Part shown: positions 6,583-56,504 of the stretch, piece after piece
How positions within the stretch are numbered: position 1 is the first letter of the stretch
How the letters are laid out: every line of letters starts with the position of its first letter
Source of the DNA: a virus
Strand: one strand, 5' to 3'
IMG/VR virus record: IMGVR_UViG_3300032116_000159
Span: 2,613 to 66,612 of that record
Length of the DNA: 64,000 bases
Translations under genes and position numbers: made by a program
The notes under the pieces: generated by a model
Database searches by the model: none
Seen by the model: only the letters and a program-made list of their open reading frames with translations
Told to the model about the DNA's origin: nothing

Positions 6583-7500
6583 TTACTTAATACCTGCTAA
6601 TTCTTTCCATCTTGAAGCGAACGCATACTGATTATTCGGTGTGTTCTTAATAGAACGCATAGGCTTCGATGCAGATTCTACAATTTGGTTTTTCGTATTT
6701 GTTTTAGCCTGTCTGTCCAAACTTTCACAAATCGTAGCATATACCAATTTAACTTCTCTGATCGTTTGTGCCCTGTCGAATGCCTCAAGTATTTTCACTT
6801 GCTTCTGTGCAGATAGTTTATTAGCACTTGTAATCTTAGTCAAAAACAACAATTTAGAATTCAAAAGATTTACTTCGTTAATTGCGTTTTTCTGTGTTGT
6901 AATTGCACGGTAAGCCTCTTTAAGTTGGGCTTTCGCTTCAGATAACTCTCTGCGTAAACGACGGTTTTCAGACTGCATTTCTTTTTCTGTTTCCATATCG
7001 TCTTCTTCGTACTTCATATCATCTTCCGCGTCACCTTCGAGTTCCGCAAGAATCTCATCGAGTCCACTCATTAAGTCGTCTTCATCATCTGGTTCTTCTT
7101 CGTCATCTTCCGGTTCTTCCATGTCCATACTATCGCCGCCTTCTTCACCTTCAAGTTCTGCAAGAATTTCCGCAAGGTCCATTTCGTCATCTGCTGGTTC
7201 TTCTTCGTCATCCATTGCAGGCACCATGTCGTCTTCTTCTGCGAGTCCGTCATAATCAGGATTCGCGTCGTCATACGTTTCATCTGAATACTCTTCGCCC
7301 ATTGTGTCTTCAGTATCGGTTGGCATTACGTCTTCTTCGTCATCCATGCCTTCTTCTTCTGAAAGTTTCTGAGTGATTAATTGTCTTACCGTCGGTTCGA
7401 ATGCTTCTTTCAGTCGACCGATTGCCGTTTGAACTGCGGTTTCTCTAACTGCTTTTGCATCAGCGATAGCCTCGTTCAAAAGATTTGAATCTAATTTCAT
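6583..7500 (-). CDS. Prohead core scaffolding protein, gp22-like
   Basis: Highly acidic middle with repeated EILAELE, C-terminal coiled coil, ends RWKELAGIK; immediately upstream of the capsid gene. Confidence 0.85.
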   Translation of the reverse strand: MKLDSNLLNEAIADAKAVRETAVQTAIGRLKEAFEPTVRQLITQKLSEEEGMDDEEDVMPTDTEDTMGEEYSDETYDDANPDYDGLAEEDDMVPAMDDEEEPADDEMDLAEILAELEGEEGGDSMDMEEPEDDEEEPDDEDDLMSGLDEILAELEGDAEDDMKYEEDDMETEKEMQSENRRLRRELSEAKAQLKEAYRAITTQKNAINEVNLLNSKLLFLTKITSANKLSAQKQVKILEAFDRAQTIREVKLVYATICESLDRQAKTNTKNQIVESASKPMRSIKNTPNNQYAFASRWKELAGIK

Positions 7501-7631: not shown

Positions 7632-7862
7632 TTAGCGATCGTGTTTTATAAATTTGTTTCTGTGTTTTGCTTTGTCAAGTAACTCTTTTCTGAGTATTGA
7701 AGGTTTAACGTATTCACGTTTATCGAATAGTGTTTTGACCTTTCCTGAGTTTTTCAGTTCCTGCTTCCAAACACGAATCGCTAAACCTAAATCGCCATCA
7801 ACAACTCTTGCACCAATACCACCAGGCAGTAGTGATAAAAACCGTTTTTCTTTTTTGTTCAT
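7632..7862 (-). CDS. rpsU: Ribosomal protein bS21 (phage-encoded)
   Basis: VVDGDLGLAIRVWKQELKNSGKVKTLFDKREYVKPSILRKE fits the bS21 pattern (AL/I-R-x-F/W-K...G...R-x-Y/F-x-KPS-x-x-R); start reassigned to MNKKEK at 7862; sits among head genes as reported for bS21 phages. Confidence 0.8.
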   Translation of the reverse strand: MNKKEKRFLSLLPGGIGARVVDGDLGLAIRVWKQELKNSGKVKTLFDKREYVKPSILRKELLDKAKHRNKFIKHDR

Positions 7863-7894
7863 TGTAGAATTTTTAATAAGTAGTATTTTAGATT

Positions 7895-8221
7895 TTAACG
7901 AGTACTCATATTTTTCAAAATATTCCCAAATTTCTTTTCGAAATTTTTCGCAGTCGCATTCCATCTGTTTTTAAATTCATCAATTGGAATTTCACCGTAC
8001 ATCTCATCGATCAACATTTCAGTTTCCATTAAAAAATCATCGACGGTATCTTGTACTATTTGTGTGGCAATTTGACGACCATACTCGTTAAGTTTCGGAT
8101 TAGATGATTGTGGTATACCAGATTTCATTTTAGTCTCGTCTAAATACTGTCGAGTCATCAGTTCGACAACCTTTGAAATTTTTTCACGAATTACCTCTGT
8201 CGTATTCGATCTACTTTTCAT
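7895..8221 (-). CDS. Hypothetical protein, candidate head cargo
   Basis: 108 aa; amphipathic VIREKISKVVEL and YLDE/KLNE sites. Confidence 0.65.
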   Translation of the reverse strand: MKSRSNTTEVIREKISKVVELMTRQYLDETKMKSGIPQSSNPKLNEYGRQIATQIVQDTVDDFLMETEMLIDEMYGEIPIDEFKNRWNATAKNFEKKFGNILKNMSTR

Positions 8222-8222
8222 A

Positions 8223-8717
8223 TTAGCATTTCCTTTTTTTCTTCGTTTCCGGTAGTGCAGTATATCCTACAGGATTTTGTTTGCCGATTTCGTATTCTAA
8301 ATATTCTGCGGCCGCACTTACATTATGTTTAGCATCGATTATTTTTGTTTGCCACCAGTGAGGAAAATCGACCGGTGACTGTAAATTCTTTACGAGTTTG
8401 CATAATTCGGCTGCGTCTTTTGCTATTGAATATAAATCCGATTTTATCATTTCGAGTTCATCTTCATCATGACTTAAATCTAACGCTTCCTTTTTAACCG
8501 GCAAACCTTTATGTTTTGTTTTAGCGAATTTTTCTAATTCCTTTTCTGACATTTTGTACATTTCTTTAGATGCACCTTTTAATGAAGATACTGGAATGTC
8601 GCCTCTTTTTGCTGCCAATGCTGCACCGGCTGCTTGTTGTTGGTCTTGTGATACCGATTTTTCGTTTATAACTTCGCTAACTGCTTGTCGTATATATGTT
8701 CGGATTTTATTTTGCAC
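8223..8717 (-). CDS. DUF3008-like domain protein with cargo-type leader
   Basis: SQDQQQAAGAALAAKRG...LKGASKEMYKMSEKELEKFAKTKHKGLP recalled as DUF3008; leader KIRTYIRQAVSEVINE; GTG start. Confidence 0.7.
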   Translation of the reverse strand: MQNKIRTYIRQAVSEVINEKSVSQDQQQAAGAALAAKRGDIPVSSLKGASKEMYKMSEKELEKFAKTKHKGLPVKKEALDLSHDEDELEMIKSDLYSIAKDAAELCKLVKNLQSPVDFPHWWQTKIIDAKHNVSAAAEYLEYEIGKQNPVGYTALPETKKKRKC

Positions 8718-9108: not shown

Positions 9109-9717
9109 TTATTTTAAACAACATACACCAGAAAGTTCGCATATAATATCGCGTATGAGAACATTAGCGATATCGTAACTTTCAGTATTCGGATTTGCTG
9201 ATTCGTTTACACGTTGCATGAACGCGCCTTGAGTTGAAGGATTTGAAACGAAATCCCATCCGACAAGTGTAAAATCTGGTTGCACCTCTACGGTAGTTTC
9301 ATCTAATTGACGCACACTTCCCATACCTCTTGAACTAATACCCAACGTAACACCGGCTTTGAATAGTTCTTTAAGTATATTACCGGACGGTGTATTCAGA
9401 ATCTGAACTTTACCGTATACGTCATCGCCTTTCCATTCCACATTCAGAATATTATGGGATACATTGCGTAAATTCACTACACTCGATTCAGGATGATCTA
9501 ATTCCCCCAACGCCCTCTTCTGTGCAATTTCTACTTTACGGTATCGTTCGATTTCACGTTCGAGTATCGGTTTCGGATATATTCTCCCATTTTGGTTTTT
9601 TACACCAGCACGTTGCAATACACCTTCGACAATAAAAGAATTGTCGCCGTACTTCGATTCGGTTATCGAGTCACGTGTATAAATGAAATTGCCGTATTCT
9701 ACCAATAAGTTTTTCAT
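9109..9717 (-). CDS. gp21: Prohead core protease, T4 gp21 family
   Basis: KNQNGRIYP, ALGELDHP (catalytic His), VSH, NTPSG, GISSRGMGS (catalytic Ser), DFVSNPS. Confidence 0.97.
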   Translation of the reverse strand: MKNLLVEYGNFIYTRDSITESKYGDNSFIVEGVLQRAGVKNQNGRIYPKPILEREIERYRKVEIAQKRALGELDHPESSVVNLRNVSHNILNVEWKGDDVYGKVQILNTPSGNILKELFKAGVTLGISSRGMGSVRQLDETTVEVQPDFTLVGWDFVSNPSTQGAFMQRVNESANPNTESYDIANVLIRDIICELSGVCCLK

Positions 9718-10502: not shown

Positions 10503-10819
10503 TATGCCCCAGTTTTAACATACACGGGTTTTTGCCCTTTTTTCTGCTCTCCACCTTTCTTCGCATCTCCACCTTTTTTCTGAGCAGCTCTTTTTCTATT
10601 TACAAATGATGCGATTCCTTTTTTTCCTAATTTTGACGCTTTCTCTTTCGATAAACATGCTGAATACGCATCCCCCTCTTTTGCATCACCGCACTTTCCA
10701 ACCTTTTCACCTTTTGAATTGTATCGGTCCCATCCACCACCAGTTGAAGATCCTGACCCGCCTTTGCCAAACCACTTTCTAAGGTCTTCTTTATAAATGT
10801 CAGTTAACTTTAGACTCAT
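10502..10819 (-). CDS. Small basic protein, DUF5872-like
   Basis: EDLRKWF...W...CG...C...RKRAA; Lys/Gly-rich. Confidence 0.6.
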   Translation of the reverse strand: MSLKLTDIYKEDLRKWFGKGGSGSSTGGGWDRYNSKGEKVGKCGDAKEGDAYSACLSKEKASKLGKKGIASFVNRKRAAQKKGGDAKKGGEQKKGQKPVYVKTGA

Positions 10820-11660
10820 TACGTGATTCCAAGTGATGAATAAGTTCGTAATATTTAATCATTGATGAAATATGTTCGTCTTTAACACGTTTAGCATTTA
10901 CAATCTCATTCGCTAAATTTGTCACTTCGTTCAATTTTATTTTTAATGCTGTATCCTCAACCTTGCGTATCAGAGAATACAATGATTTTTGTATACCGAT
11001 AGCTTCGGTATATATAAATTCTTTAAATGGTTGGAGACTTGTATTTTCAGTTATAAAACGATTTATCAATGTTTTTTGTTTCGGATTCAAGTTCTTGTAT
11101 TTGTTATTGAACTTTTCGATAACCATTTTGAACGCAAGTTGTTTGATTTCCGAACTCTGCTTATCGTATATAGACTGTGGTGATTCTGTTAATTTAGTTT
11201 TATTCGCACCTGTCAAATGTTCTAAAATCGTATCATACGAATTCACATGCCCTGTTGGATTATCTGCAGAGTCATATTCAAATAATTTATATACAGATGC
11301 TTTCAATTTATAATCGTGTACACGCGCTTCGAAGAACTTTGCAAGATCGTACTTAGATTTTATCTCAGATATCAGACTGTATTTTTCCTTATTAAGTTTT
11401 TTCTCGTCGATACTCTTTCGCTGTTTCAGTACAATCTCTACGAGTTTAAATGCAGTTGACTCTTTTTTGTTTCGTGTGTCGATTAAGGCTTGATAACATG
11501 CCAGTTCTTTATTTAACTCGGTACCTTCTTTAAAGAATTTTCTAACAATTGTCAAACTCTGATTTTTATTATTAGTCAATACGTCAGATGCGACCTGTTT
11601 AGACAGCAACTCAAAGATGATACCGGTATTTTTGTATTTTACATGTTTAAATTTCTTCAT
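10800..11660 (-). CDS. Hypothetical head-module protein
   Basis: 286-aa helical ORF between portal and protease, behind a late motif at 11685-11694. Confidence 0.75.
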   Translation of the reverse strand: MKKFKHVKYKNTGIIFELLSKQVASDVLTNNKNQSLTIVRKFFKEGTELNKELACYQALIDTRNKKESTAFKLVEIVLKQRKSIDEKKLNKEKYSLISEIKSKYDLAKFFEARVHDYKLKASVYKLFEYDSADNPTGHVNSYDTILEHLTGANKTKLTESPQSIYDKQSSEIKQLAFKMVIEKFNNKYKNLNPKQKTLINRFITENTSLQPFKEFIYTEAIGIQKSLYSLIRKVEDTALKIKLNEVTNLANEIVNAKRVKDEHISSMIKYYELIHHLESRNESKVN

Positions 11661-13568: not shown

Positions 13569-15164
13569 TTATAGTAACCACCGTGTCGATATAGTATTAC
13601 CTTTTCCGTCATCCATTGTCCATTTTGAATTATCCCCATTCGCATTCGGTGTATACACTCGTTTGTGCATATGTTGTAATGTTTTTCTGGTCATATCTAA
13701 ACCAATCTCACGTAGTTTCAGTGCAGTATCACGAACAAATAACGCAATACCTGTCGATAATACTGCATCGTCTTTACGGCCTGGTCTTGCCTGTGCTTTA
13801 CCGTTTAGCCATACAAAAACAAGCAATTGTGATATTAGCCTCTTCGACCTTACTATAATTAGTTTTTCATTGAAATATCGCTCGATTTTTGATACGATCA
13901 TTGGACGATTTGCGGTAGTTGTTGTGAAACCAGGAACCATATCCTTTTTCGATTTCAAATCGTATCCTTTCGAAATATGTTTTATCGGATCGACATATAC
14001 ATCCTGTCTGTAACTATAAAAAATATTCGAATAATTCATGTCGATCGCTTCTTGTACAGTATCATAACCGATATTTTTATTTTCAATTACAAGCATTGCC
14101 GTGTTGTATTCGGTTGCGATCGATACCGCCATTCTACCTAAATCTCGTGGCGATACTTTTCCAATATACTCGGCAACTTGTTCCATCGATTCGACATCAA
14201 AAACTTCAATTGCAGAATCGTCGGCACCATCGCCACGAGCAACGTCTACCGATACAACATAAGATCGTGTATAATCAGGATATTTCCATATCCAATAATC
14301 GCCATCGATCCCTCTGCGTTCTAATGGATCGGTAACCATGTTTTCGTTGTACCATTTTAAAACATCACCTTCAATAACCGAATGACCTGATGTCAAAAAG
14401 TCGCAGTCACATTCCTGTGCCGCCATTCTTTCACCTAAATGGAGAGTCTGTTGGTCACGCCATTTTTGATCTCGTTCAGGATGTAGATCCCAATTAAGTT
14501 TTATCGGATTAAACGGATCTAAACCGTCTGGTGCTTTTTGTATTTCTGCATCGACCCATAATTGGTGAAATAAGTTGTCTACACCATTTGGAGTCGATAA
14601 TAATATTGCATCTCCACCTGTAGCTAATGTCATCTGTGCCGATGCCCAAATACGATCGATGTTGTCAACAAATGCAGCCTCATCTATAATCAATAGTGAA
14701 AGTGCTTCGGAACGTCCTGCTGTTGGTGAGGATGATACAGCTTTAATTGTTGAACCGTTTGCGAATGATAATTGTAGTTTATTATCATCTACTACACGCG
14801 TTTTCATCCATGACGGCAAGTTCGTATTCATTACCTTTACTTTATGTACAAGGTTCTTTGCAACATCTTGTGTTGTTGCGATTACGAGTACTTTGTAGTT
14901 TTCACGGAAAAGCATATTCATTAAAGCATATGCAGCAACCAGTGTTGAAATTCCCATTTGACGGGACTTCAATATTATATTGAATTTATGCGATATTATT
15001 TCTTCAAGGGCCCGTGTTTGAAACGGGAATAGTTGAAACGGAATTTTGCCCTGAATAGGGTGTTCGATCTTGCAGTATTTTTTTATCGCATAATTATAAT
15101 CGACACTACATCGTGCAAGTTCTTGGGTTACAATATCACGTATGTTCGGTTGTTTTTCTGACAT
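13569..15164 (-). CDS. terL: Terminase large subunit, gp17 family
   Basis: LFPFQ, Walker A KSRQMGIST, Walker B LIIDEAAF, LSTPNG, nuclease VDVARGDGADDS and DDAV. Confidence 0.97.
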   Translation of the reverse strand: MSEKQPNIRDIVTQELARCSVDYNYAIKKYCKIEHPIQGKIPFQLFPFQTRALEEIISHKFNIILKSRQMGISTLVAAYALMNMLFRENYKVLVIATTQDVAKNLVHKVKVMNTNLPSWMKTRVVDDNKLQLSFANGSTIKAVSSSPTAGRSEALSLLIIDEAAFVDNIDRIWASAQMTLATGGDAILLSTPNGVDNLFHQLWVDAEIQKAPDGLDPFNPIKLNWDLHPERDQKWRDQQTLHLGERMAAQECDCDFLTSGHSVIEGDVLKWYNENMVTDPLERRGIDGDYWIWKYPDYTRSYVVSVDVARGDGADDSAIEVFDVESMEQVAEYIGKVSPRDLGRMAVSIATEYNTAMLVIENKNIGYDTVQEAIDMNYSNIFYSYRQDVYVDPIKHISKGYDLKSKKDMVPGFTTTTANRPMIVSKIERYFNEKLIIVRSKRLISQLLVFVWLNGKAQARPGRKDDAVLSTGIALFVRDTALKLREIGLDMTRKTLQHMHKRVYTPNANGDNSKWTMDDGKGNTISTRWLL

Positions 15165-15565: not shown

Positions 15566-15889
15566 TTATTTACTGTTTAAAATATTCAATGCGTCTTCGA
15601 CTGTTAGATCGACCGGTTTACCTTTTTTAGAATTGCGTTCGATTCGATCAAGTTCTTTTTTCAATTCAGAAATCTCTTCGAGTGTCAACTGCTTATCTCG
15701 TTCAACCTGTTCACTTTCAACTGCAAGTTTTTCTGCTTCGGTGATTTTCGAATAGACTTCGGTTACGATTTCAGTTTTATACTGATACGCATTATATAGA
15801 ATATATGCAAGTGCGCCGTTTGACATCAGCGACAGTATCATTACGATATAGATTAGTATATTACTCTGAGACTTTTGTTGTGTTTCCAT
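15566..15889 (-). CDS. N-terminal TM coiled-coil protein, i-spanin-like candidate
   Basis: Start reassigned to METQQK at 15889; ILIYIVMILSLMSNGALAYILY TM segment then coiled coil. Confidence 0.55.
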   Translation of the reverse strand: METQQKSQSNILIYIVMILSLMSNGALAYILYNAYQYKTEIVTEVYSKITEAEKLAVESEQVERDKQLTLEEISELKKELDRIERNSKKGKPVDLTVEDALNILNSK

Positions 15890-16502
15890 TATATTCTTGT
15901 ATTTTTTGTAACGCGATTTTTTTAAATTCATGGTATTCTTCACGCATTTTTTCTGCGTGTGTTCGGTCCCCATTCCAAACTTCGATTCGCCCGTCGCTAT
16001 TCACAAAGTGAGATTCGCCGGCAATTTGTTCGTAAGTTATGTCGATCTCTTTATCGGCCTGTTTGAAAAACGCTTCGGCGTTACGCATCATCTGCTCACG
16101 CTCGTACTCTTTAAATTTACCTTCTTGTTTCATTTTGGTTTCGATACGAAATTGGCAGTCTGCACATCTACCGAATTTTGCACGGAATCGCTTATCTAAT
16201 TTCGTGTACACCTTTGTACGACAATTAGGTAAACAGTTCGGATACGAATTCAAGTATTCACGTATCTCCTCTACGGCTTCTTTATGCACACCACTGCGTA
16301 CACGATATCCGTTCTTCTGTTCCCATACTGCAATAACATCACCATTCGAATCTTTCTCTTCCCAAGTCTCTCCAACTTCACGGCGTTTCGATTTCTCACT
16401 CGCTACATCAGCATCGGTGAAACCAATTTTTGTACGTGTTTGAGTTCGATGTTTACCTTCAAGCATCTCACGAACTGCTTTAACATTTTGTAACCTTGCC
16501 AT
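15861..16502 (-). CDS. Hypothetical protein with Cys pairs (possible Zn site)
   Basis: REVGETWEE, WEQKNGY, CLPNC...CADC. Confidence 0.75.
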   Translation of the reverse strand: MARLQNVKAVREMLEGKHRTQTRTKIGFTDADVASEKSKRREVGETWEEKDSNGDVIAVWEQKNGYRVRSGVHKEAVEEIREYLNSYPNCLPNCRTKVYTKLDKRFRAKFGRCADCQFRIETKMKQEGKFKEYEREQMMRNAEAFFKQADKEIDITYEQIAGESHFVNSDGRIEVWNGDRTHAEKMREEYHEFKKIALQKIQEYNGNTTKVSE

Positions 16503-16517
16503 ATTCGATATATTATA

Positions 16518-16829
16518 TTAGTCGTTTTTTGATGCGTCTTTTAATCCTTGGACCATTGCATTTATTTTACCTTTCGGTACACCTACTAAATCAGCAAACT
16601 TCACAATTGCTTCTGCCTGGTCACCGGTATTATTGAATTTCAATAGATTTTTCAATGAAGAGTTTTCAAGTTTTTCAAAAAATCTCTTGACTCTGATTTT
16701 TTTAAATTCCTTAGAAGTCTCAGTTTTTTCTTCATTAATCAATTCTGCAAGAGTTTGCTGCACCATTTTTTGTACAGCTAATCTTATCTGTTTTTCATGC
16801 AATGGGTGTTTCGGATTTCTTATGTTCAT
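16518..16829 (-). CDS. Hypothetical protein, candidate head cargo
   Basis: Late motif at 16850-16859, TAAGGA SD, leader QIRLAVQKMVQQTLAELINE. Confidence 0.7.
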   Translation of the reverse strand: MNIRNPKHPLHEKQIRLAVQKMVQQTLAELINEEKTETSKEFKKIRVKRFFEKLENSSLKNLLKFNNTGDQAEAIVKFADLVGVPKGKINAMVQGLKDASKND

Positions 16830-16872: not shown

Positions 16873-19272
16873 TTAACGTGTAAATGTAAACACGCCCATT
16901 ATTTGATTTAACGGTGCAAACGCACCGGTCAGTTTATATGTACTACCTTTATAATTAAATACAATGCCCTCATTAGGTACAATCTTTTCAAAACCACCTA
17001 ATGATTCGAGTCGCTTCAATTCCAATTCGAGTTTAATTAAATTTTTAGCATCACCAGTTGCACGTATTGAAGATATCGCGTTTTTAAGTTTGTCGACAAT
17101 ATCACGTTTCGCCTCTTCAGGATTTACAACAAGTACCGATGACATGAAGGAAAGTACATCGGCGCCAACGCCTAAAAATATTTCTTCGAATTTCATAAGA
17201 TTTGTTTTTGAAATTTTCTGGTAGTCGAGTTTATCTGTTTTTTCGGCCCATTGACGGATGTCAGGATCGGTGATCTGATTTAATCGGAACGACTTATCGA
17301 AAAACGCCCATCGTTTAACTAAACCGTCACGTATATCTGGTGACAAATCTTTCGGAGCGTTTTTATTGATCCATTGTTCCCACCATGCTTGATGATAGTC
17401 TTCAACACCATTCGCATCGTTTAATCCGAATTCTTTTTGCAGTTTCGATATCTTAGTAATATAATCAGGTTGTTTCGCCATTAGATCTTGACTCTTCGGT
17501 AAAGTTTGTACAGGAGGTCCTTGTAATTTAAAACGACTTTGAATATTGGCATTTACCTTTTCGATCATATCGGCAAGTTTAAAACCTGCTTGAGGATCTT
17601 CGCTTATCGGATTCCCTCGTTCATCGTATTCCATTGTACCGTGGAATACTAAAAGCGATTGCCCATATGGAATGACATTTGTATTTTCAGGATATATCAC
17701 TTCGCAATTCATGAACGCTTTACCCTCTTTGAATATCGATTCGCGTTCCGCATTAGATAATTGTATTATTGCAGATTTTAAATCCTTTATTGCAAATGTA
17801 AACGCATCCGATAATGCACCACGTCCTGCAAATTTATCGATGAGATCTTGCTCAGTCATTGCCATTTCACCTGCGTTTACTAAGTGACCTTTATTTCTTG
17901 CAGAAATCAATGCACCATTTTTCCAACTTATCGCAAGTGCCTGACCATCTGTTTTCTCACGGGCTAATTCGAGTTCGCCAGTTAATGCTGACTTTACAAT
18001 TTGTTTGAGATCGCCAAATGTTAAATTCATGTCGATATCGAATGGGTGTGCCATATGACCATATGCACCACCTTCAAGTATTATATTTTCGGTTAAGGCT
18101 TCTGTACGCAATTTTTTTATTTTAGACATTATAGAATCTAATTCGGCTTTAGCTTTTATTTGTTTTGGTGAATTCGGAAACATTTTCATCAGTGCCGAAA
18201 ACAAACGATTTCTCTCCGATTCTAATTTACGGAGTTCGTTCTTTGTATCCTCTACCGATTCTTTGTTTATTTCAATCGCTTGCAGTTGTTTTATTGCCGC
18301 TTTTTTAGTATCATGGGTACCTAATCGTTTACCACCCTTTTTAGGATACACTACCCAGTCGTCACCGACTTTTTTTACTGTTTCAATATTTAACACAGGA
18401 TCCGGTGACTTAAATGCCGGCTTTCGCATAATTGTTTTTGCGATTAATCGATTCGCCTGTGTTTTAAACGGTATATTGATATTTGTTCTTTTATCCGTAA
18501 TTACAAATTCCAAATATTTTTTAGTGAATTCATCGAACGCTGCTCTATTTCTAATGAGACGTTTAAAGAACCCGATCATTTCCGCATACGAAATTTCTTT
18601 GCCGTTTCTTGGATCGTTCAATCGTTGAAAAAAATGATCGATTTCTCTACCAAATTCGAAATCGTATGGAGCTAAATTCGTATCGGCGAATTTTTCCACA
18701 GAATCTAAATCGGCCTTAGCCATTTCATTCATCACATTGAGTTTCGATCGTATCAAATCGTATATGCGCTTGTCGAAATTCGGATACGCTTTTTCGAAAT
18801 TCAATTTAGCGTTGTTTTCATCAGATATACTAAGCCAATCTCTTACATCAGTACCACTTATCGCATTCGGTAGTGATGGAGCAACATACACGTAGCCCTG
18901 TTGTTTAAACGGCAATAAATCAGTGTTACCAGTGTACGGCAAAAAATATTTACCGCCTAAACGGCCGGAGTCTTTTTCACCGACAACCGTTATCAATATA
19001 TCCGAGTCTTCATCATAATCGTTCAGAATTTCAATAGGCCGGTACGGATTTTTTACCTGTACCACTTGCGTCTTCGGTATACCGAACATCGATGTTATTA
19101 TGGTTTTTTTATCTTTGAAATCGAATGGCGATTTCGGTAATTCTACTTTATCTGAGGTTCCGATATAAACATTCGCCTTTCCGAATTTCTTGACAAGATG
19201 CATATAGGTCGCATAATGCCCTTTGTGAAAAGGTTGAAATCTACCTACATATGTTACGATGATATTACCCAT
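16873..19272 (-). CDS. Multidomain protein: HxGH nucleotidyltransferase plus ligase-like KxDG domain
   Basis: N-terminal GRFQPFHKGH and ISGTDVR; C-terminal EKTDG, EVIYP, EGIV, YKLTG. Confidence 0.75.
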   Translation of the reverse strand: MGNIIVTYVGRFQPFHKGHYATYMHLVKKFGKANVYIGTSDKVELPKSPFDFKDKKTIITSMFGIPKTQVVQVKNPYRPIEILNDYDEDSDILITVVGEKDSGRLGGKYFLPYTGNTDLLPFKQQGYVYVAPSLPNAISGTDVRDWLSISDENNAKLNFEKAYPNFDKRIYDLIRSKLNVMNEMAKADLDSVEKFADTNLAPYDFEFGREIDHFFQRLNDPRNGKEISYAEMIGFFKRLIRNRAAFDEFTKKYLEFVITDKRTNINIPFKTQANRLIAKTIMRKPAFKSPDPVLNIETVKKVGDDWVVYPKKGGKRLGTHDTKKAAIKQLQAIEINKESVEDTKNELRKLESERNRLFSALMKMFPNSPKQIKAKAELDSIMSKIKKLRTEALTENIILEGGAYGHMAHPFDIDMNLTFGDLKQIVKSALTGELELAREKTDGQALAISWKNGALISARNKGHLVNAGEMAMTEQDLIDKFAGRGALSDAFTFAIKDLKSAIIQLSNAERESIFKEGKAFMNCEVIYPENTNVIPYGQSLLVFHGTMEYDERGNPISEDPQAGFKLADMIEKVNANIQSRFKLQGPPVQTLPKSQDLMAKQPDYITKISKLQKEFGLNDANGVEDYHQAWWEQWINKNAPKDLSPDIRDGLVKRWAFFDKSFRLNQITDPDIRQWAEKTDKLDYQKISKTNLMKFEEIFLGVGADVLSFMSSVLVVNPEEAKRDIVDKLKNAISSIRATGDAKNLIKLELELKRLESLGGFEKIVPNEGIVFNYKGSTYKLTGAFAPLNQIMGVFTFTR

Positions 19273-19304: not shown

Positions 19305-22300
19305 TTAGGTCTTTTTAGTATACAGTTGAAAAGACCAATCTGACGCACCGTTAACTACACCGGTATCTAATCGTAATAGATCTCCTTTACTAAGAGTAGT
19401 TTGACCTGCTCGGGAACCTGTGACTGCATAATAAAGGAAGCCGGCATCCGGTAATGATACTGTAACTATCGTACCTGAAAATGTAGCACCACCGTTTGTT
19501 GATTTCAAGGCTTTCATTACAAATGGGCCGCCACTCGGTAAATTTTTTGCTGATAGTGATGCTGAATAGATTGTTACATTTTCAACTACATATTTCCATT
19601 CTGCTACATCGGCCGCTTCGGTTGAAGGTGTTCCAGTACCTGACCAATCGAATACAAGTGGAAAGTTTGTTGAACCGATAATACCTTGCGTTCCTTGTGT
19701 ACCCTGAGTACCTTGCGTACCTTGGGTTCCAATAGTTCCTTGTGTACCGGTTGTACCTTGTCGACCTTGAGTGCCTTGGGTTCCTTGTGTACCAATATCG
19801 CCAGTGTCACCTTTAGTTCCTTGAGAGCCTGTTGTTCCTTGTACGCCTTGAGTACCAATATCGCCAGTGTCACCTTTAGTTCCTTGACGACCTTGAGTGC
19901 CTTGTGTTCCTTGTGTACCAAGAGTTCCTTGAGACCCGGTATCACCTTTAGTTCCTTGTGAACCCGTTGTACCTTGTGTTCCTTGAGATCCTACGGTTCC
20001 TTGTGAACCAATTGTTCCTTGTGAACCGGTATCCCCAGTTGTACCTGAAGCACCTTGAGTTCCAATAGTTCCTTGTGTACCGGTTGTACCTTGTCGTCCT
20101 TGTGTACCCTGAGTGCCTTGTGTACCAATATCGCCAGTGTCACCTTTAGTTCCTTGGGAACCGATAGTTCCTTGTGTTCCTTGAGATCCTACGGTACCCT
20201 GACTTCCAATAGTTCCTTGTGTACCGGTAGTACCCATTGCACCAGTTTCACCTACTGTACCTTGTGTTCCAGTAGTACCTTGCCGACCTTGTGTACCCTG
20301 AGTGCCTTGAGACCCGGTATCACCTTTAGTTCCTTGTGAACCAATTGTTCCTTGATGGCCTTGTGTACCTTGTGTACCTTGTGTACCTATAACGCCTTGA
20401 CTACCAATCGTTCCTTGTGTACCGGTTGTGCCTGCGGCTCCAGTTTCGCCTACTGTACCTTGAGTTCCAGTTGCACCTTGTCGACCTTGTACACCTTGTG
20501 TACCGATTGTACCTTGAGTTCCAGTAGTGCCTTGTGAACCAATTGTACCTTGATGACCTTGTGTACCTTGTGTACCCTGACTGCCTGTTGTACCATTTGT
20601 ACCAGAGGCGCCTTGAGAACCTACAGTGCCTTGTGTACCTATAGTGCCTTGATGACCTTGTGTACCTTGTGTACCTTGGGTACCAATTGTGCCTTGTGTA
20701 CCGGTTGTTCCATTTGTACCAGAGGTGCCTTGAGAACCTACGGTGCCTTGTGTACCGGTTGTGCCTTGATGACCCTGAGTACCTTGTGTACCTTGTGTAC
20801 CAATTGTACCTTGTGTACCGGTTGTTCCATTTGTACCAGAAGTGCCTTGTGAACCAATTGTGCCTTGAGTTCCAGTAGTACCATTTGTACCAGAAGTGCC
20901 TTGTGAACCAATTGTACCTTGTGTACCGATTGTACCTTGTCGACCTTGTACACCTTGTGTACCGGTTGTACCTTGAGTACCGGTTGTGCCTTGAGTTCCA
21001 GTAGTGCCTTGTCGACCTTGTACACCTTGTGTACCAATTATGCCTTGTGAACCAATTGTGCCTTGTGTACCGATTGTACCTTGTCGACCTTGTACACCTT
21101 GTGTACCGGTTGTACCTTGTGTACCGGTTGTACCTTGTGAACCAATTGTGCCTTGTGTTCCAGTAGTGCCTTGTGAACCAATTGTGCCTTGAGGGCCTTG
21201 TACACCTTGTATGTTTACTGACCCTGTGAATATTTCAAAATCTTGTTTTAAATTATTATAACTCCCTGATAATATTAGAAATCGTGTTTTTGTATCTGAA
21301 CTACTTCCTGAGATTGATTGTATTACATCATTTTCTGATAGAAGATCTCTACGTATACCAAATCCTTGAAAATATACACCATATAATTGAGTGAATATTC
21401 TTGATTTTATACCGTTCTCTGTATAATAGTCGATATTCAAAACAAGTTCGGTATTTGTTTCAAATGACGATAACGGTAATATCAGTCGTGCCTGATTAGG
21501 TGAATATCCTCTTTCATTACGAGGTTGAACTGTTATATTTTTTATATTGACAATATCGCAATCTCTAAATGCGAATACAGGACGTATAGCACGGGTCGAC
21601 CCTACTCTAAAATAGAATTCGAACTTTTTCGATTCTGGTGTACTGATTTCTGATACTGATGCTAAATACGATCCTAATAGAGGCGCCTTTATCGGTTCTC
21701 TAACATTTTTGAGATTCAGTATATTTGTAACAACATCTGAACCTGATATAAAAATATCGATTTGTGGGGTATTCGAATTCAGAGATTCTGCGCCGTTTGT
21801 TGTCACGGTCAATTTGAATTCAGTATTTTCAACTGCATTAATCGATAGGTAAGGTCGCACATAATAATCATAATCGGTAACTATAGAACTTGTATATGAT
21901 GCAGACAACGCAGTACCCTGATTATTAAATATCACAGAGTTTACAGGCGTTATTTTTTTAGAGCCGTTTACATATTGCCAGTATTGCGTGAATTCAGCTG
22001 CTGTTTTAAACTTACCGACCGATTTTTCAACAAACTCGATTTTAGTTCGGTCGATTTGCTCTGATACTAAGAAATCCTGCGTTTTTATTTTATATTCACC
22101 AATGTCACGGAATTCGCCGAATGACCCGAACGGTTTATAACTTATACGAACTTTGTCCGCATCACCTGCAATAGGTTGTAAATTGAAAAAATCTAATTGT
22201 ACAAAAGATTCACTTGCAACTTGCGACAACTGTGCGTCTTCTGTTGAATAATAACTTGCAGTCACATTTTGTATATCGAAAAACTTTTTTACAGAGTTCG

Positions 22301-23255
22301 TTTGACCGTCTCTTACATAATCGAATCGGAATGGAGGATATACTTTTGCAGTTTTCGCATCCATCACTTCGAGTACGCTGCAACTATATGCCGGTACAGT
22401 ACCACCTAATGAAACTATGGTCTGTTTGTCTAAACCTAATTGATTTGTCAAACCTTTTACGACAAGAGTACCTCCGACATATTGTTCATCGAAACTACCA
22501 CCTGCATCATAGATAACACTAATGTCTTTAAACGGTGAAATTAGATCCTGACTCGATTCGAAATAGTTCGGACCAACTTTCGGATCGTAAATTATATTTT
22601 CATCGATCTCACTTACTCGAACTGCACCTTTTAGTGTATCACTATATTTGTATTCAACACCGGGTGAGGTTGTAGAAAGTTTAAATGAACCAGTGACTAC
22701 CTTTCTACGGTCACGAGGATCGGTGTCGAAGGCGTAATATCTCTCACGTCTCTCAGTCGCTCTAACTATGGGCGGCGAAGCGAAAATTAATTCGGTACTA
22801 TTTTGTATATTCGGAATTATGATTATACGTTTTGACCATATAAGATTCGGATTATCGATAAAATCTGAACTACTGGCATCTCTACTATATGCGAGTTCAT
22901 TTCCATTTCTAACATCGACCGATGCCCTACCAGCGATGTATATTGTCGCTTCACCAGGTGTAGTTGTTTCGTATATATGTGCAACGATCAATCGTGCGTC
23001 GTCTTCTCCAATAAAATTGACAACTTCATGGAATACTGTTTTACCTGCAGCATCTATTATATCGATATAGATAAGTGATGACTTAACAAGTGTATTCGAA
23101 TTTGCACGTATACGGAATGCGTTTTTTCCTAAATACAGACGTTCTGGTATATCGAATAATCGGAAATAATCAGTCGATAATAAAGATGTGTCCTGTATAG
23201 GGATTTGATTATAAACTTTGTCTAAACCGGTAGCAAATCTTTTACTCTTGAGCAT
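19305..23255 (-). CDS. Large structural protein with ~500-aa collagen-like domain
   Basis: ~680-aa globular N-terminus, Gly-X-Y from ~21210 to ~19680, ~120-aa C-terminal domain. Confidence 0.85.
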   Translation of the reverse strand: MLKSKRFATGLDKVYNQIPIQDTSLLSTDYFRLFDIPERLYLGKNAFRIRANSNTLVKSSLIYIDIIDAAGKTVFHEVVNFIGEDDARLIVAHIYETTTPGEATIYIAGRASVDVRNGNELAYSRDASSSDFIDNPNLIWSKRIIIIPNIQNSTELIFASPPIVRATERRERYYAFDTDPRDRRKVVTGSFKLSTTSPGVEYKYSDTLKGAVRVSEIDENIIYDPKVGPNYFESSQDLISPFKDISVIYDAGGSFDEQYVGGTLVVKGLTNQLGLDKQTIVSLGGTVPAYSCSVLEVMDAKTAKVYPPFRFDYVRDGQTNSVKKFFDIQNVTASYYSTEDAQLSQVASESFVQLDFFNLQPIAGDADKVRISYKPFGSFGEFRDIGEYKIKTQDFLVSEQIDRTKIEFVEKSVGKFKTAAEFTQYWQYVNGSKKITPVNSVIFNNQGTALSASYTSSIVTDYDYYVRPYLSINAVENTEFKLTVTTNGAESLNSNTPQIDIFISGSDVVTNILNLKNVREPIKAPLLGSYLASVSEISTPESKKFEFYFRVGSTRAIRPVFAFRDCDIVNIKNITVQPRNERGYSPNQARLILPLSSFETNTELVLNIDYYTENGIKSRIFTQLYGVYFQGFGIRRDLLSENDVIQSISGSSSDTKTRFLILSGSYNNLKQDFEIFTGSVNIQGVQGPQGTIGSQGTTGTQGTIGSQGTTGTQGTTGTQGVQGRQGTIGTQGTIGSQGIIGTQGVQGRQGTTGTQGTTGTQGTTGTQGVQGRQGTIGTQGTIGSQGTSGTNGTTGTQGTIGSQGTSGTNGTTGTQGTIGTQGTQGTQGHQGTTGTQGTVGSQGTSGTNGTTGTQGTIGTQGTQGTQGHQGTIGTQGTVGSQGASGTNGTTGSQGTQGTQGHQGTIGSQGTTGTQGTIGTQGVQGRQGATGTQGTVGETGAAGTTGTQGTIGSQGVIGTQGTQGTQGHQGTIGSQGTKGDTGSQGTQGTQGRQGTTGTQGTVGETGAMGTTGTQGTIGSQGTVGSQGTQGTIGSQGTKGDTGDIGTQGTQGTQGRQGTTGTQGTIGTQGASGTTGDTGSQGTIGSQGTVGSQGTQGTTGSQGTKGDTGSQGTLGTQGTQGTQGRQGTKGDTGDIGTQGVQGTTGSQGTKGDTGDIGTQGTQGTQGRQGTTGTQGTIGTQGTQGTQGTQGTQGIIGSTNFPLVFDWSGTGTPSTEAADVAEWKYVVENVTIYSASLSAKNLPSGGPFVMKALKSTNGGATFSGTIVTVSLPDAGFLYYAVTGSRAGQTTLSKGDLLRLDTGVVNGASDWSFQLYTKKT
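19680..21210 (-). repeat. Gly-X-Y collagen-like repeat with higher-order blocks
   Basis: GTQ/GSQ/GTI/GTT triplets; recurring blocks GTSGTNGTT, GTQGHQ, GTKGDTGDI. Confidence 0.95.
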
Positions 23256-27388: not shown

Positions 27389-27835
27389 TTATAGAAGAAG
27401 TTTTTTTAAACTTTCGTTGCCACGAAGCGCTACAAAATCCTTTGAACCGATTGCATCATTATAGTAATCTTCTCGTAAAATAACATCTTTTTTATGTTGA
27501 AGATTCACTTCGATATAATTTATCTGACCTTTTGTTTCTGCAAAATAAAGTATTTCAAAATAGAAATTCTCTTTGCCCAAAAGTTTTATATCTTCATTCA
27601 ATTGTTTGTTTGAACCAGTGTAGGTTTTCCAATTCGATTCTTTTTTAACAACATCACGCCTCACACGGCCTGATTCTTTTTGTTTTTTAGTCAAGGGTTT
27701 CCGTGTAGTAGATTGTGTGTATTTTCTACCGATATACTTTTTATTATTTGTCAGGTTTTTAATTTCATAAACAAACCCGCAAACATTTTCAGGTAATTCT
27801 GTTACCGGTTGCCCTTCATATATCCAATGTGCCAT
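27389..27835 (-). CDS. GIY-YIG endonuclease
   Basis: GFVYEIKN...KKYIGRK, ESNWKTYTGS, F..EIL, YYN. Confidence 0.85.
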   Translation of the reverse strand: MAHWIYEGQPVTELPENVCGFVYEIKNLTNNKKYIGRKYTQSTTRKPLTKKQKESGRVRRDVVKKESNWKTYTGSNKQLNEDIKLLGKENFYFEILYFAETKGQINYIEVNLQHKKDVILREDYYNDAIGSKDFVALRGNESLKKLLL

Positions 27836-55670: not shown

Positions 55671-55935
55671 CTGTTTCCTCTATTAGTATTATGAGATCCG
55701 AATCGCCTTTAAGTATACGATGGTATACTTCTTTACCGATTTCAAGTTTTAGACCATCGGTTAAACTTATAGGCAGTTCGTCTTCGAATTGAAACTTCCA
55801 ATTACCGCTTTGAACGATTTCGACTGTGCGATTTTTATAATCACGGTGCCAAACCAATTCAGATTCGTTTAGATTATCCACCTTAAATATTCGTGTGAAT
55901 CGATTCGACTCGTGCGGCGTATCTGTGTATACCAT
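55663..55935 (-). CDS. Small cupin-like protein
   Basis: ELVWHRD, WKFQFEDELP, YHRILKG; ATG at 55935 overlaps the upstream stop. Confidence 0.7.
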   Translation of the reverse strand: MVYTDTPHESNRFTRIFKVDNLNESELVWHRDYKNRTVEIVQSGNWKFQFEDELPISLTDGLKLEIGKEVYHRILKGDSDLIILIEETDD

Positions 55936-56504
55936 TACCAATAAGTGTTCATGTTATCGCCTAAACCTAATGTTTTAGCGTAACGCGGTAATCTACAAGA
56001 CCAATAACCAGGGCTGGTTCTGTCTGTTTTATCTTTACAATTATGACGGTCTGCAAATGCTTTACGTCTCTCAGGATCTTTGAATTTAACTGCTAAACTA
56101 CCTCCACCATCTTTTGCACCGAAGGCTACTTTTCGTATGTTACCACTTGAAGGATCTTTTACAAACACATAAAACTTTTTCGATCCGCCACGTTTAGGTT
56201 TACCTAATTCAACTTCGCGTCCTTGGTATTCTGCCTCGTTTACAAATGGTAAATCTAATGGAACACGTTCACCATTGTATAATCCGAATTCACCTAAATC
56301 GGTCTGCAACATATCGGTGTCGTTTTCATTATAATATTTACCAGATCGGCATAAAGTTTTTGCTTCGTTTATAACTTCAAAAAATTTAGCGCTACCATGA
56401 CGAAATATATTTTTTGAGACCGGTATATTGTTTTCTATATGATAACGAAGTTCCTTTGAAATTGCAGTCTCCGTTTCGAGTAGTAAACTTTTTATGCTAA
56501 TCAT
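55935..56504 (-). CDS. Hypothetical protein with cargo leader and basic C-terminal module
   Basis: MISIKSLLLE; FVNE; KKFYVFVK...KVAFG...RRKAFADRHNC...YWSC. Confidence 0.75.
   Translation of the reverse strand: MISIKSLLLETETAISKELRYHIENNIPVSKNIFRHGSAKFFEVINEAKTLCRSGKYYNENDTDMLQTDLGEFGLYNGERVPLDLPFVNEAEYQGREVELGKPKRGGSKKFYVFVKDPSSGNIRKVAFGAKDGGGSLAVKFKDPERRKAFADRHNCKDKTDRTSPGYWSCRLPRYAKTLGLGDNMNTYW

Follow-up and report, generated by a model that had tools for sequence, protein, structure and literature searches.

In RNA repair, RNA ligases are usually partnered by CCA-adding-type, HD, 2H, or kinase domains, as in T4 Pnkp/Rnl1 and Trl1. For capsid cargo, the review PMC9026906 reports that the T4 protease gp21 cuts after L/I-x-E and that the first 10 residues of the internal protein IPIII suffice for capsid targeting; residues 4 and 7 of the targeting sequence matter for targeting and residues 8 and 10 for processing, and Asp10 blocks cutting but not targeting. 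For polyvalent phage proteins, PMC5512222 describes PBECR RNase domains that pair a His in an N-terminal helix with a C-terminal Thr or Ser. Here, we describe a phage gene whose domain architecture is a new variation on all three themes. The gene lies in a 64,000-nucleotide stretch of viral DNA (positions 2,613 to 66,612 of IMG/VR record IMGVR_UViG_3300032116_000159), hereafter called the window, and encodes a protein of 799 amino acids (aa). We propose, with a probability of about 0.5, that this protein is a modular ("polyvalent") chain composed of an HxGH enzyme, two mobile modules, and an RNA-ligase-like domain acting on RNA ends and, less firmly, that the chain is cut by a gp21-type protease and packaged into the capsid.

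The open reading frame (ORF) occupies 16873..19272 on the minus strand, counting the stop codon, with an ATG start and no frame breaks, and the public collection holds an identical protein (P0002). A first-pass annotation, made from the letters of the window and a list of its ORFs, had given exactly these positions, and all 14 strings that it quoted are found in the stated order in the protein. Their first residues are GRFQPFHKGH 10, VMNE 180, HFFQRLNDPRN 213, KTIMRK 279, and LNIE 294 in the N-terminal part; KKVGDDWVVY 300, KGGKRLGTH 312, INKE 335, ALTE 392, and IILE 397 in the middle; and EKTDG 439, EVIY 524, EGIV 768, and YKLTG 779 in the C-terminal part. The same annotation read the product as a gp21-cut polyprotein that joins an HxGH nucleotidyltransferase, a guessed RNase, and a ligase-like domain, perhaps for NAD+ rescue or RNA repair; how these ideas fared is told below with the evidence.

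The C-terminal domain (aa 401-799; 16876..18072, minus strand) has the fold of ATP-dependent RNA ligases, and their motifs I, III, IV, and V are conserved in it; no curated family includes it. This part of the window copy matches no Pfam, PHROG, or NCBIfam family. An AlphaFold2 (AF2) model built from an alignment of 36 family members has a mean predicted local distance difference test score (pLDDT) of 92.2. In an unbiased fold search of 48,161 representative chains, the top 13 rows are all ligases (Z 8.9-6.6, with approximately 180-210 residues aligned), and re-alignment of Foldseek's top 1,000 chains yields 22 at Z>=8, every one of them an RNA ligase. The best match is NgrRnl (Z 9.2; root mean square deviation [rmsd] 3.9; 186 residues aligned), followed by Trl1 (8.9), T4 Rnl1 (8.8), TbREL1 (8.7), and T4 Rnl2 (8.1), with DNA ligases at no more than 7.2 in the same comparison (5-7.2 across lists). 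Foldseek's own best matches are weak (E from 2.4e-3) and are almost all RNA or DNA ligases.

The residues expected of such an enzyme are strongly conserved. In an alignment of 36 members (domain numbering; add 384 for full-length residue numbers), the residues E55, K56, D58, G59, R75, E140, E384, and G385 never vary, and conservation of K396 is at least 90%. Motif I, E-K-T-D-G, in which E55, K56, D58, and G59 are found in 36/36 members, contains Lys440 (codon at 17953..17955, minus strand), the predicted AMP-accepting lysine. Motifs III (E524), IV (E768-G769), and V (K780) follow in ligase order on model strands 135-142, 385-390, and 393-397. The ligase fold that the first-pass annotation expected here is supported by the structure searches, and its four motifs EKTDG, EVIY, EGIV, and YKLTG are conserved. 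Based on the fold, the motif pattern, and the uniform hit list together, we judge aa 401-799 to be a new family of the ligase superfamily, nearer to RNA than to DNA ligases. The domain would self-adenylylate on K440 and then join or adenylylate RNA ends.

Several structural elements set this family apart. An all-helical insert of approximately 170 aa lies between motifs IIIa and IV (about aa 589-764; 16981..17508, minus strand), with helices at model residues 211-379 and strands 156-175 and 385-397 on either side; the ligase alignments reach both flanks of the insert yet cover just ~180-215 residues. Past motif V, the model contains no OB-fold domain, and a single helix (401-414) precedes the chain end. 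Ahead of motif I, the domain opens with a conserved GGxxGHxxHP(F/Y)(D/E) element. Searches with curated families return little: PF09511 (the T4 Rnl1/Trl1 family) gives no match at E<=1 for the window protein and is not on the 25-family list obtained for the 36 members, and DNA_ligase_aden is matched weakly by 2/36 (best E 0.063). Searched against solved structures, the family profile found only ribosomal protein eS6 and TetR (E 0.0017-0.1), matches that we regard as spurious. DUF6267, which a protein atlas lists for 23-44% of neighboring-cluster members, was unconfirmed in the window record (E<=10), in four relative records (E<=1), and in the list for the 36 members.

The N-terminal domain (aa 1-180; 18733..19272, minus strand) is, by sequence, an HxGH (Rossmann-type) nucleotidyltransferase resembling NadM, an NMN (nicotinamide mononucleotide) adenylyltransferase (NMNAT), and carries GRFQPFHKGH and ISGTDVR. 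The window copy scores 20.5 bits (E 5.9e-4) against Pfam CTP_transf_like (PF01467), which has a gathering cut-off of 21, and orthologues exceed this cut-off, reaching 38 bits. A single-sequence search of the PDB finds the NMNATs 2qjt (E 1.2e-4) and 1f9a (E 5.8e-4), the latter in an alignment extending to ISGTDVR, and a profile of 24 orthologues finds 11 PDB matches, 11/11 of them NMNATs (best 2qjt, E 8.9e-7). NMNATs are the only solved structures found by sequence for this domain. Across the 24 orthologues, 39 columns are invariant, including H16, G18, H19, T141, and R144, with conservation of at least 90% at S139 and G140; HxGH and SxTxxR-type motifs are therefore both present. The match to NCBIfam NMNAT models is confined to the first 60-70 residues and scores 16-28 bits versus cut-offs of 127-449 (NF002243, 26 bits versus 127; TIGR01527, 23 bits versus 181.2; NadM-Nudix models, 16-28 bits versus 354-449). 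Together, the PF01467, PDB, NCBIfam, and orthologue-profile results back the HxGH nucleotidyltransferase named in the first-pass annotation. Its substrate could be NMN or another 5'-phosphorylated compound.

To see what accompanies the ligase-like domain, Pfam domains were compared in 34 diverse representatives and in 25 orthologues at the same genome position. Among the representatives, 20 carry CTP_transf_like, before or after the ligase-like domain; 7 carry DUF5661, 6 a P-loop kinase (AAA_33/Zeta_toxin), 3 ROS_MUCR, and 2 a PolyA_pol head, and HD, 2H (under the cut-off), and an intein are seen in 1 each. The orthologues have CTP_transf_like in 21, PolyA_pol in 3, and HD in 3. The pairing of PF01467 with the ligase-like domain thus occurs in 20/34 representatives and 21/25 orthologues, in either chain order. 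Because some relatives add CCA-adding-type, HD, or P-loop kinase domains to the same chain, we read the protein as acting in RNA-end repair, and the ligase-like domain probably has the predicted role of repairing tRNA or mRNA cut by host defenses. A Trl1/Tpt1-type coupling, in which the ligase leaves a 2'-phosphate for an NAD-using phosphotransferase, was considered and set aside: Tpt1 was found in 0/4 whole relative genomes (three IMG/VR relatives rated 100% complete and Microcystis phage Mel-JY01), and none was found in the window's source record, a 66.6-kb record with an estimated completeness of 38%. In one relative (P0254; 1,245 aa), the intein spans residues 748-878 (Intein_splicing, E 1.1e-10), just upstream of the ligase-like domain.

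Between the two enzymes lie two small modules and a linker. Module A (aa 184-295; 18388..18723, minus strand) is a mobile domain with a RelE/ParE/RegB-like (BECR-type) predicted fold; its PHROG matches, phrog_23027 (E 1.4e-8) and phrog_14518 (E 1.5e-4), are groups of unknown function. An AF2 model of aa 182-345 has a mean pLDDT of 84.5. Its fold matches to module A are headed by RelE (Z 5.4, 74 residues aligned; a second RelE at Z 5.1), a CdiA-CT RNase (Z 4.8), and T4 RegB (Z 4.7, 98 aligned), with ParE, HigB, and BrnT following, every Z being below the tool's trust level; the top Foldseek match, ParE, is likewise weak (E 0.048). In an alignment of 43 rows, H213, R217, D220, R222, N223, and T280 are at least 90% conserved. 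H213 is present in 40/43 rows and lies within model helix 30-37, and T280 is present in 41/43 and lies directly past the last strand, a pair that agrees with the PBECR active-site pattern. Module A is therefore a weakly supported, putative BECR-type RNase or RNA binder. The RNase guess of the first-pass annotation gains from the recurrent RelE/ParE/CdiA-CT/RegB fold matches and the conserved His213/Thr280 and is held back by weak scores (Z<=5.4, E 0.048).

Module B (aa 298-337; 18262..18381, minus strand) is a small, basic, DUF2188-like beta-plus-helix module containing KKVGDDWVVYPKKGGKRLGTH, with a match to phrog_3684 (E 3e-13). Its match to DUF2188 itself (PF09954) misses the threshold (11.9 bits versus a cut-off of 22, E 0.25), and the fold search returns just short PH-like and miscellaneous matches at Z<=5.2, none convincing. 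Copies of module B at 70-85% identity are scattered over many unrelated small phage proteins, and module A occurs alone or otherwise fused in phages of Flavobacterium, Methylophilales, Paraglaciecola, and Sinorhizobium as well as in numerous metagenome proteins. Whether the modules exist as separate genes or in other combinations had been posed as a check by the first-pass annotation, and both are seen in relatives. Modules A and B are small units that move among many phage proteins. A K/E/L-rich linker follows (aa 338-400; 18073..18261, minus strand), ending in tandem sites L-T-E (393-395) and I-L-E (398-400). Within it, aa 338-392, a putative coiled coil in the first-pass annotation, give two weak Pfam coiled-coil family matches (E 0.25 and 0.43), with the modeled helix extending into the stretch, and the last 16 residues (aa 385-400) are modeled as disordered (AF2 pLDDT 33-35).

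The window encodes a T4 gp21-type prohead protease (9109..9717, minus strand; PF03420 Peptidase_S77, E 3.8e-32, 111.8 bits), and two of the four joints in the 799-aa protein are conserved as potential sites for such an enzyme. Joint 1, M-N-E (aa 181-183; 18724..18732, minus strand), lies directly before module A, where [LIVMF]xE is found in 28 of the 40 rows with upstream residues versus a background of 2.1% per position, and the stand-alone module A protein P0293 starts exactly past the joint Glu. At the second conserved joint, [LIVMF]xE stands directly before the GG of the ligase-like domain in 107 of 136 family representatives. Position -4 is L/I/V/M in 123 of the 136 and -3 is L/I in 132; at -1, 107 have Glu, 14 Met, 13 Cys, and 2 Ala. 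A second [LIVMF]xE lies no more than 12 aa further upstream in 76 of 122 representatives versus 16% expected from background. Counted over the whole protein, there are 13 [LIVMN]xE sites versus 15.4 +/- 3.1 in 2,000 shuffles and 3 strict [LI]xE sites versus 8.4 +/- 2.5; read alone, this count would refute the polyprotein idea, a reading that the joint-by-joint conservation tests supersede. The first-pass statement that (L/I/V/M/N)-x-E occurs at every junction is literally true, but the count is at chance and the sites are conserved at only 2/4 joints.

N-terminal leaders vary across the family. The window protein starts MGNIIVTYVGRFQ, four residues ahead of the first Rossmann strand; the gene upstream has its stop codon 32 nt ahead of this ATG. 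Most other relatives (P0017 onward) begin M-N-S-L-T-Q-F-L-V-D-G-I-L-L-E-G or M-K-G-L-E-K-F-L-V-E, and stand-alone ligase-like proteins have leaders of 10-21 aa ending in LxE, such as M-I-T-F-R-Q-Y-I-S-E directly before GG. For comparison, T4 IPII and IPIII start M-K-T-Y-Q-E-F-I-A-E (T4 record). The prohead protease of the window itself has a similar start, and leaderless close relatives of the 799-aa protein retain both conserved joints. In the proposed mechanism, the gp21-type protease would cut the chain after Glu183 and after Glu395/Glu400, and separate enzymes would be released in the prohead and then ejected with the DNA. Judged from the conserved sites, cutting at the two joints is plausible for the family, and capsid packaging of the leaderless window copy is uncertain. 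The polyprotein claim of the first-pass annotation therefore stands in part: a gp21-type protease is encoded and 2/4 joints are conserved, with tandem sites before the ligase-like domain, but two joints fail and the capsid leader is absent.

The family is large and its position in the genome is conserved. Among 7,999 scored candidate proteins, 3,567 match the 799-aa protein at E<=1e-3, many at 60-70% identity, and an exhaustive HMMER search with the ligase-like domain finds 1,842 cluster representatives (50% identity) at E<=1e-3, 594 of them at E<=1e-30. The ligase-like domain nearly always forms the C-terminus of its protein, which is 390-1,930 aa long; in some cases, it makes up the entire protein (~415 aa). 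The cultured Microcystis phage Mel-JY01 has a homologue as well (WWT39297.1). We compared gene order in 80 related IMG/VR loci. The terminase large subunit (TerL; 13569..15164 in the window, minus strand; phrog_2, E 7.5e-43) is downstream of the homologue in 78/80, both misses being cut loci, and portal, the counterpart of ORF 10800..11660, and the protease come next wherever the locus DNA extends that far. The homologue is 414-1,848 aa long in the 52 loci with a complete ORF, apart from one odd 3,737-aa open frame (L031) that runs into the ligase-like domain. HxGH falls within the first 60 residues in 45/52 complete orthologues and at residues 61-108 in 3 more; the remaining 4 are one without HxGH, two stand-alone 414-aa ligase-like proteins, and L031. 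With HxGH kept at the start, the ligase-like domain kept at the end, and lengths that vary, the variable part of the family proteins is therefore the middle. A large, abundant clade of T4-like myoviruses from fresh and marine waters has it as a core gene, a short distance upstream of the genes for terminase, portal, and head proteins. Our literature searches found no paper describing the family.

A number of observations weigh against the proposal of a cut and packaged RNA-end enzyme. Fold scores of Z 8-9 are only moderately above values that unrelated models often give, and a Z near 8 is possible without kinship. The hhalign comparison with T4 Rnl1 is nonsignificant (E 0.12, probability 0.5), although it pairs E-K-T-D-G with Rnl1 K-E-D-G (Lys on Lys) and C-E-V-I-Y-P with F-E-F-V-A-P, which we take to be motifs I and III of T4 Rnl1. 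PF09414 (RNA_ligase, Rnl2) is matched weakly by 3/36 members (best E 0.014) and not by the window copy, the BECR assignment of module A depends on Z<=5.4, and most relatives have no RNA-repair domain beyond the HxGH and ligase-like enzymes. As to cutting, the number of sites over the whole protein does not exceed chance, the hydrophobic-x-Glu rule is fitted by the LNIE joint in 0/21 rows and by the INKE joint in 0/22, and 29/136 representatives have Met, Cys, or Ala rather than Glu before the ligase-like domain, where the conserved LLxE may rather serve a function within that domain. An N-terminal leader is also missing from the window protein and from the 14 relatives nearest to it (P0003-P0016), all of which start directly at the Rossmann strand. 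These last points would all be expected if the same domains formed an uncut, cytoplasmic, multidomain RNA-end enzyme that is never loaded into the capsid, with LLxE-GG either belonging to the ligase domain or serving as a flexible hinge, and retention of the motif in stand-alone forms, as for a domain part, fits this explanation as well. It is a possible but less likely account: the motif sits in a stretch modeled as disordered and is tandem far more often than background predicts, P0293 begins exactly where a cut would leave it, most relatives have leaders like the T4 capsid targeting sequence, and a gp21-type protease is present.

Other explanations concern the substrate. The chain could serve mainly in NAD+ rescue, with a true NMNAT rebuilding NAD+ against NAD-depleting defenses and the C-terminal domain in the same pathway; the uniformly NMNAT solved relatives of the first domain, its best NCBIfam matches, and its GRFQPFHKGH and ISGTDVR motifs are what this would predict. 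We consider it very unlikely, since those matches are limited to approximately the first 60-70 residues (the best NCBIfam ones at 23-28 bits), the partner is ligase-shaped rather than an NAD-pathway enzyme, and NAPRTase/NAMPT is found in 0/4 of the whole relative genomes, all four of which have PF01467, and is absent from the incomplete 66.6-kb record. An NMNAT without a salvage partner is conceivable, yet an NAD-rebuilding pathway gains no support, and on these grounds the NAD+ rescue suggested in the first-pass annotation is not upheld. It is improbable, too, that DNA is the substrate of the C-terminal domain, for instance in nick sealing or in the handling of genome ends around packaging. 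The conserved place upstream of TerL, the fold shared with DNA ligases, and the weak DNA_ligase_aden matches are compatible with such a role, but RNA ligases rank above DNA ligases throughout, the model lacks an OB domain past motif V, and the domains fused in relatives are RNA-end enzymes. A more speculative variant starts from chemistry: both NMNAT-like and ligase-like enzymes make A(5')pp(5')N linkages, so the two, once cut apart at the Glu joints in the prohead and ejected with the DNA, could act on the same RNA 5' ends as an RNA toolkit, forming a posttranscriptional RNA adenylylation or NAD-type capping and repair system. We regard this as a long shot, and we know of no enzyme for posttranscriptional RNA adenylylation or NAD-type capping and repair. 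A modular RNA-end enzyme chain, less firmly one that is cut and packaged, is the reading that we prefer.

If this reading is correct, it has several consequences. The C-terminal domain defines a large virus-borne, RNA-ligase-shaped family named in no curated library. If it does seal RNA, the family extends the phage countermeasures against host RNA-cutting defenses and may provide new ligase reagents. Cutting of the joints by the head protease, if real, would mean that T4-type capsid targeting delivers whole enzyme sets built by module shuffling, which would link polyvalent proteins to gp21. Finally, the constant NMNAT-like partner, in phages carrying no other NAD-salvage gene (NAPRTase/NAMPT looked for in four whole genomes), is an unexplained enzyme pairing.

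The surroundings of the gene identify the type of phage. A single strand bears every long ORF of the window, and the neighbors include a major head protein, portal, large terminase, baseplate wedge protein, collagen-like fiber, SbcC-like protein, and primase. The terminase is nearest to those of Mel-JY01 (52%) and Flavobacterium Immutovirus phages (50%), with T4-like cyanophages at 29%. From this terminase kinship and the neighboring genes, the source phage is, by sequence, a distant T4-type aquatic myovirus. Directly upstream of the 799-aa gene, a 1,316-aa protein (19305..23255, minus strand) contains ~550 residues of collagen-like G-x-x repeats and has many tail-fiber PHROG matches. On the downstream side, a Cys-rich 213-aa ORF (15861..16502, minus strand) is a conserved neighbor with a tblastn match downstream of the homologue in 79/80 loci, the single miss being a cut locus; the family library searches gave it no match. 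Its position directly before the terminase would suit a candidate small terminase subunit, and it overlaps ORF 15566..15973 by about 110 nt. A 103-aa ORF (16518..16829, minus strand) sits between the 799-aa gene and the Cys-rich ORF and looks like a lineage-specific insertion, because those two are only ~0.15-0.2 kb apart in most related loci.

Further ORFs in the window are of interest in their own right. Two have 10-residue leaders shaped like those of T4 IPII/IPIII and are candidate capsid-targeted proteins: 6583..7500 (minus strand), M-K-L-D-S-N-L-L-N-E followed by A, and 55935..56504 (minus strand), M-I-S-I-K-S-L-L-L-E followed by T. Inside the head-gene block, a 110-aa ORF (7632..7964, minus strand) matches ribosomal protein S21 (PF01165, E 9.4e-6, 25.7 bits, cut-off 27). 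A 164-aa ORF (8223..8717, minus strand), lying between the genes for the prohead protease and major head protein, matches DUF3008 (E 3.8e-24) and has I-N-E at residues 17-19. A 148-aa ORF (27389..27835, minus strand) matches phrog_447, "NAD synthetase" (E 9e-38), and also homing-endonuclease PHROGs, and this label is doubtful.

Each part of the 799-aa protein can be set beside a described system. With NadM-type NMN adenylyltransferases (M. jannaschii MJ0541 and F. tularensis NadM-Nudix), it has in common GRFQPFHKGH and a downstream S-G-T-x-x-R element. Unlike them, it scores far under the curated cut-offs, mainly over the first 60-70 residues; unlike NadM-Nudix, it has no Nudix partner, and NAMPT was found in none of the four whole relative genomes. 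The polyvalent phage proteins that Iyer et al. (2017, PMC5512222) describe, which bear PBECR RNase domains, carry several unrelated enzyme domains per chain, shuffled among relatives, in a gene near virion genes, and the same is true of the 799-aa family. Unlike polyvalent proteins, the 799-aa protein has no embedded metallopeptidase found by Pfam. In the text of PMC5512222, cytidylyltransferase, NMNAT, and HxGH occur 0 times each, and the RNA ligases that it mentions are only ATP-grasp types not tied to polyvalent proteins.

The T4 internal proteins IPI-III and Alt are capsid-targeted, cut by gp21, and co-ejected with the DNA. The window phage also encodes a gp21-type protease, hydrophobic-x-Glu is conserved at two joints, and relatives of the 799-aa protein carry leaders of 10-17 aa with the same shape as those of IPII/IPIII. 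Unlike the T4 proteins, the window copy is leaderless, and the predicted cuts fall between enzyme domains and not just past a propeptide. The closest likeness is to the RNA ligases Naegleria NgrRnl, fungal Trl1, T4 Rnl1, T. brucei REL1, and T4 Rnl2, with which the C-terminal domain shares the core fold (Z 9.2-8.1, with 179-215 residues aligned at rmsd 3.8-5.1), the conserved motifs I, III, IV, and V in unchanged order, and the lack of an OB domain after motif V, the last of which distinguishes it from DNA ligases and mRNA capping enzymes. Unlike these RNA ligases, it has its helical domain of ~170 aa as an insertion between motifs IIIa and IV and not as an appendage, carries GGxxGHxxHP(F/Y)(D/E) before motif I, and has an HxGH nucleotidyltransferase as its usual partner.

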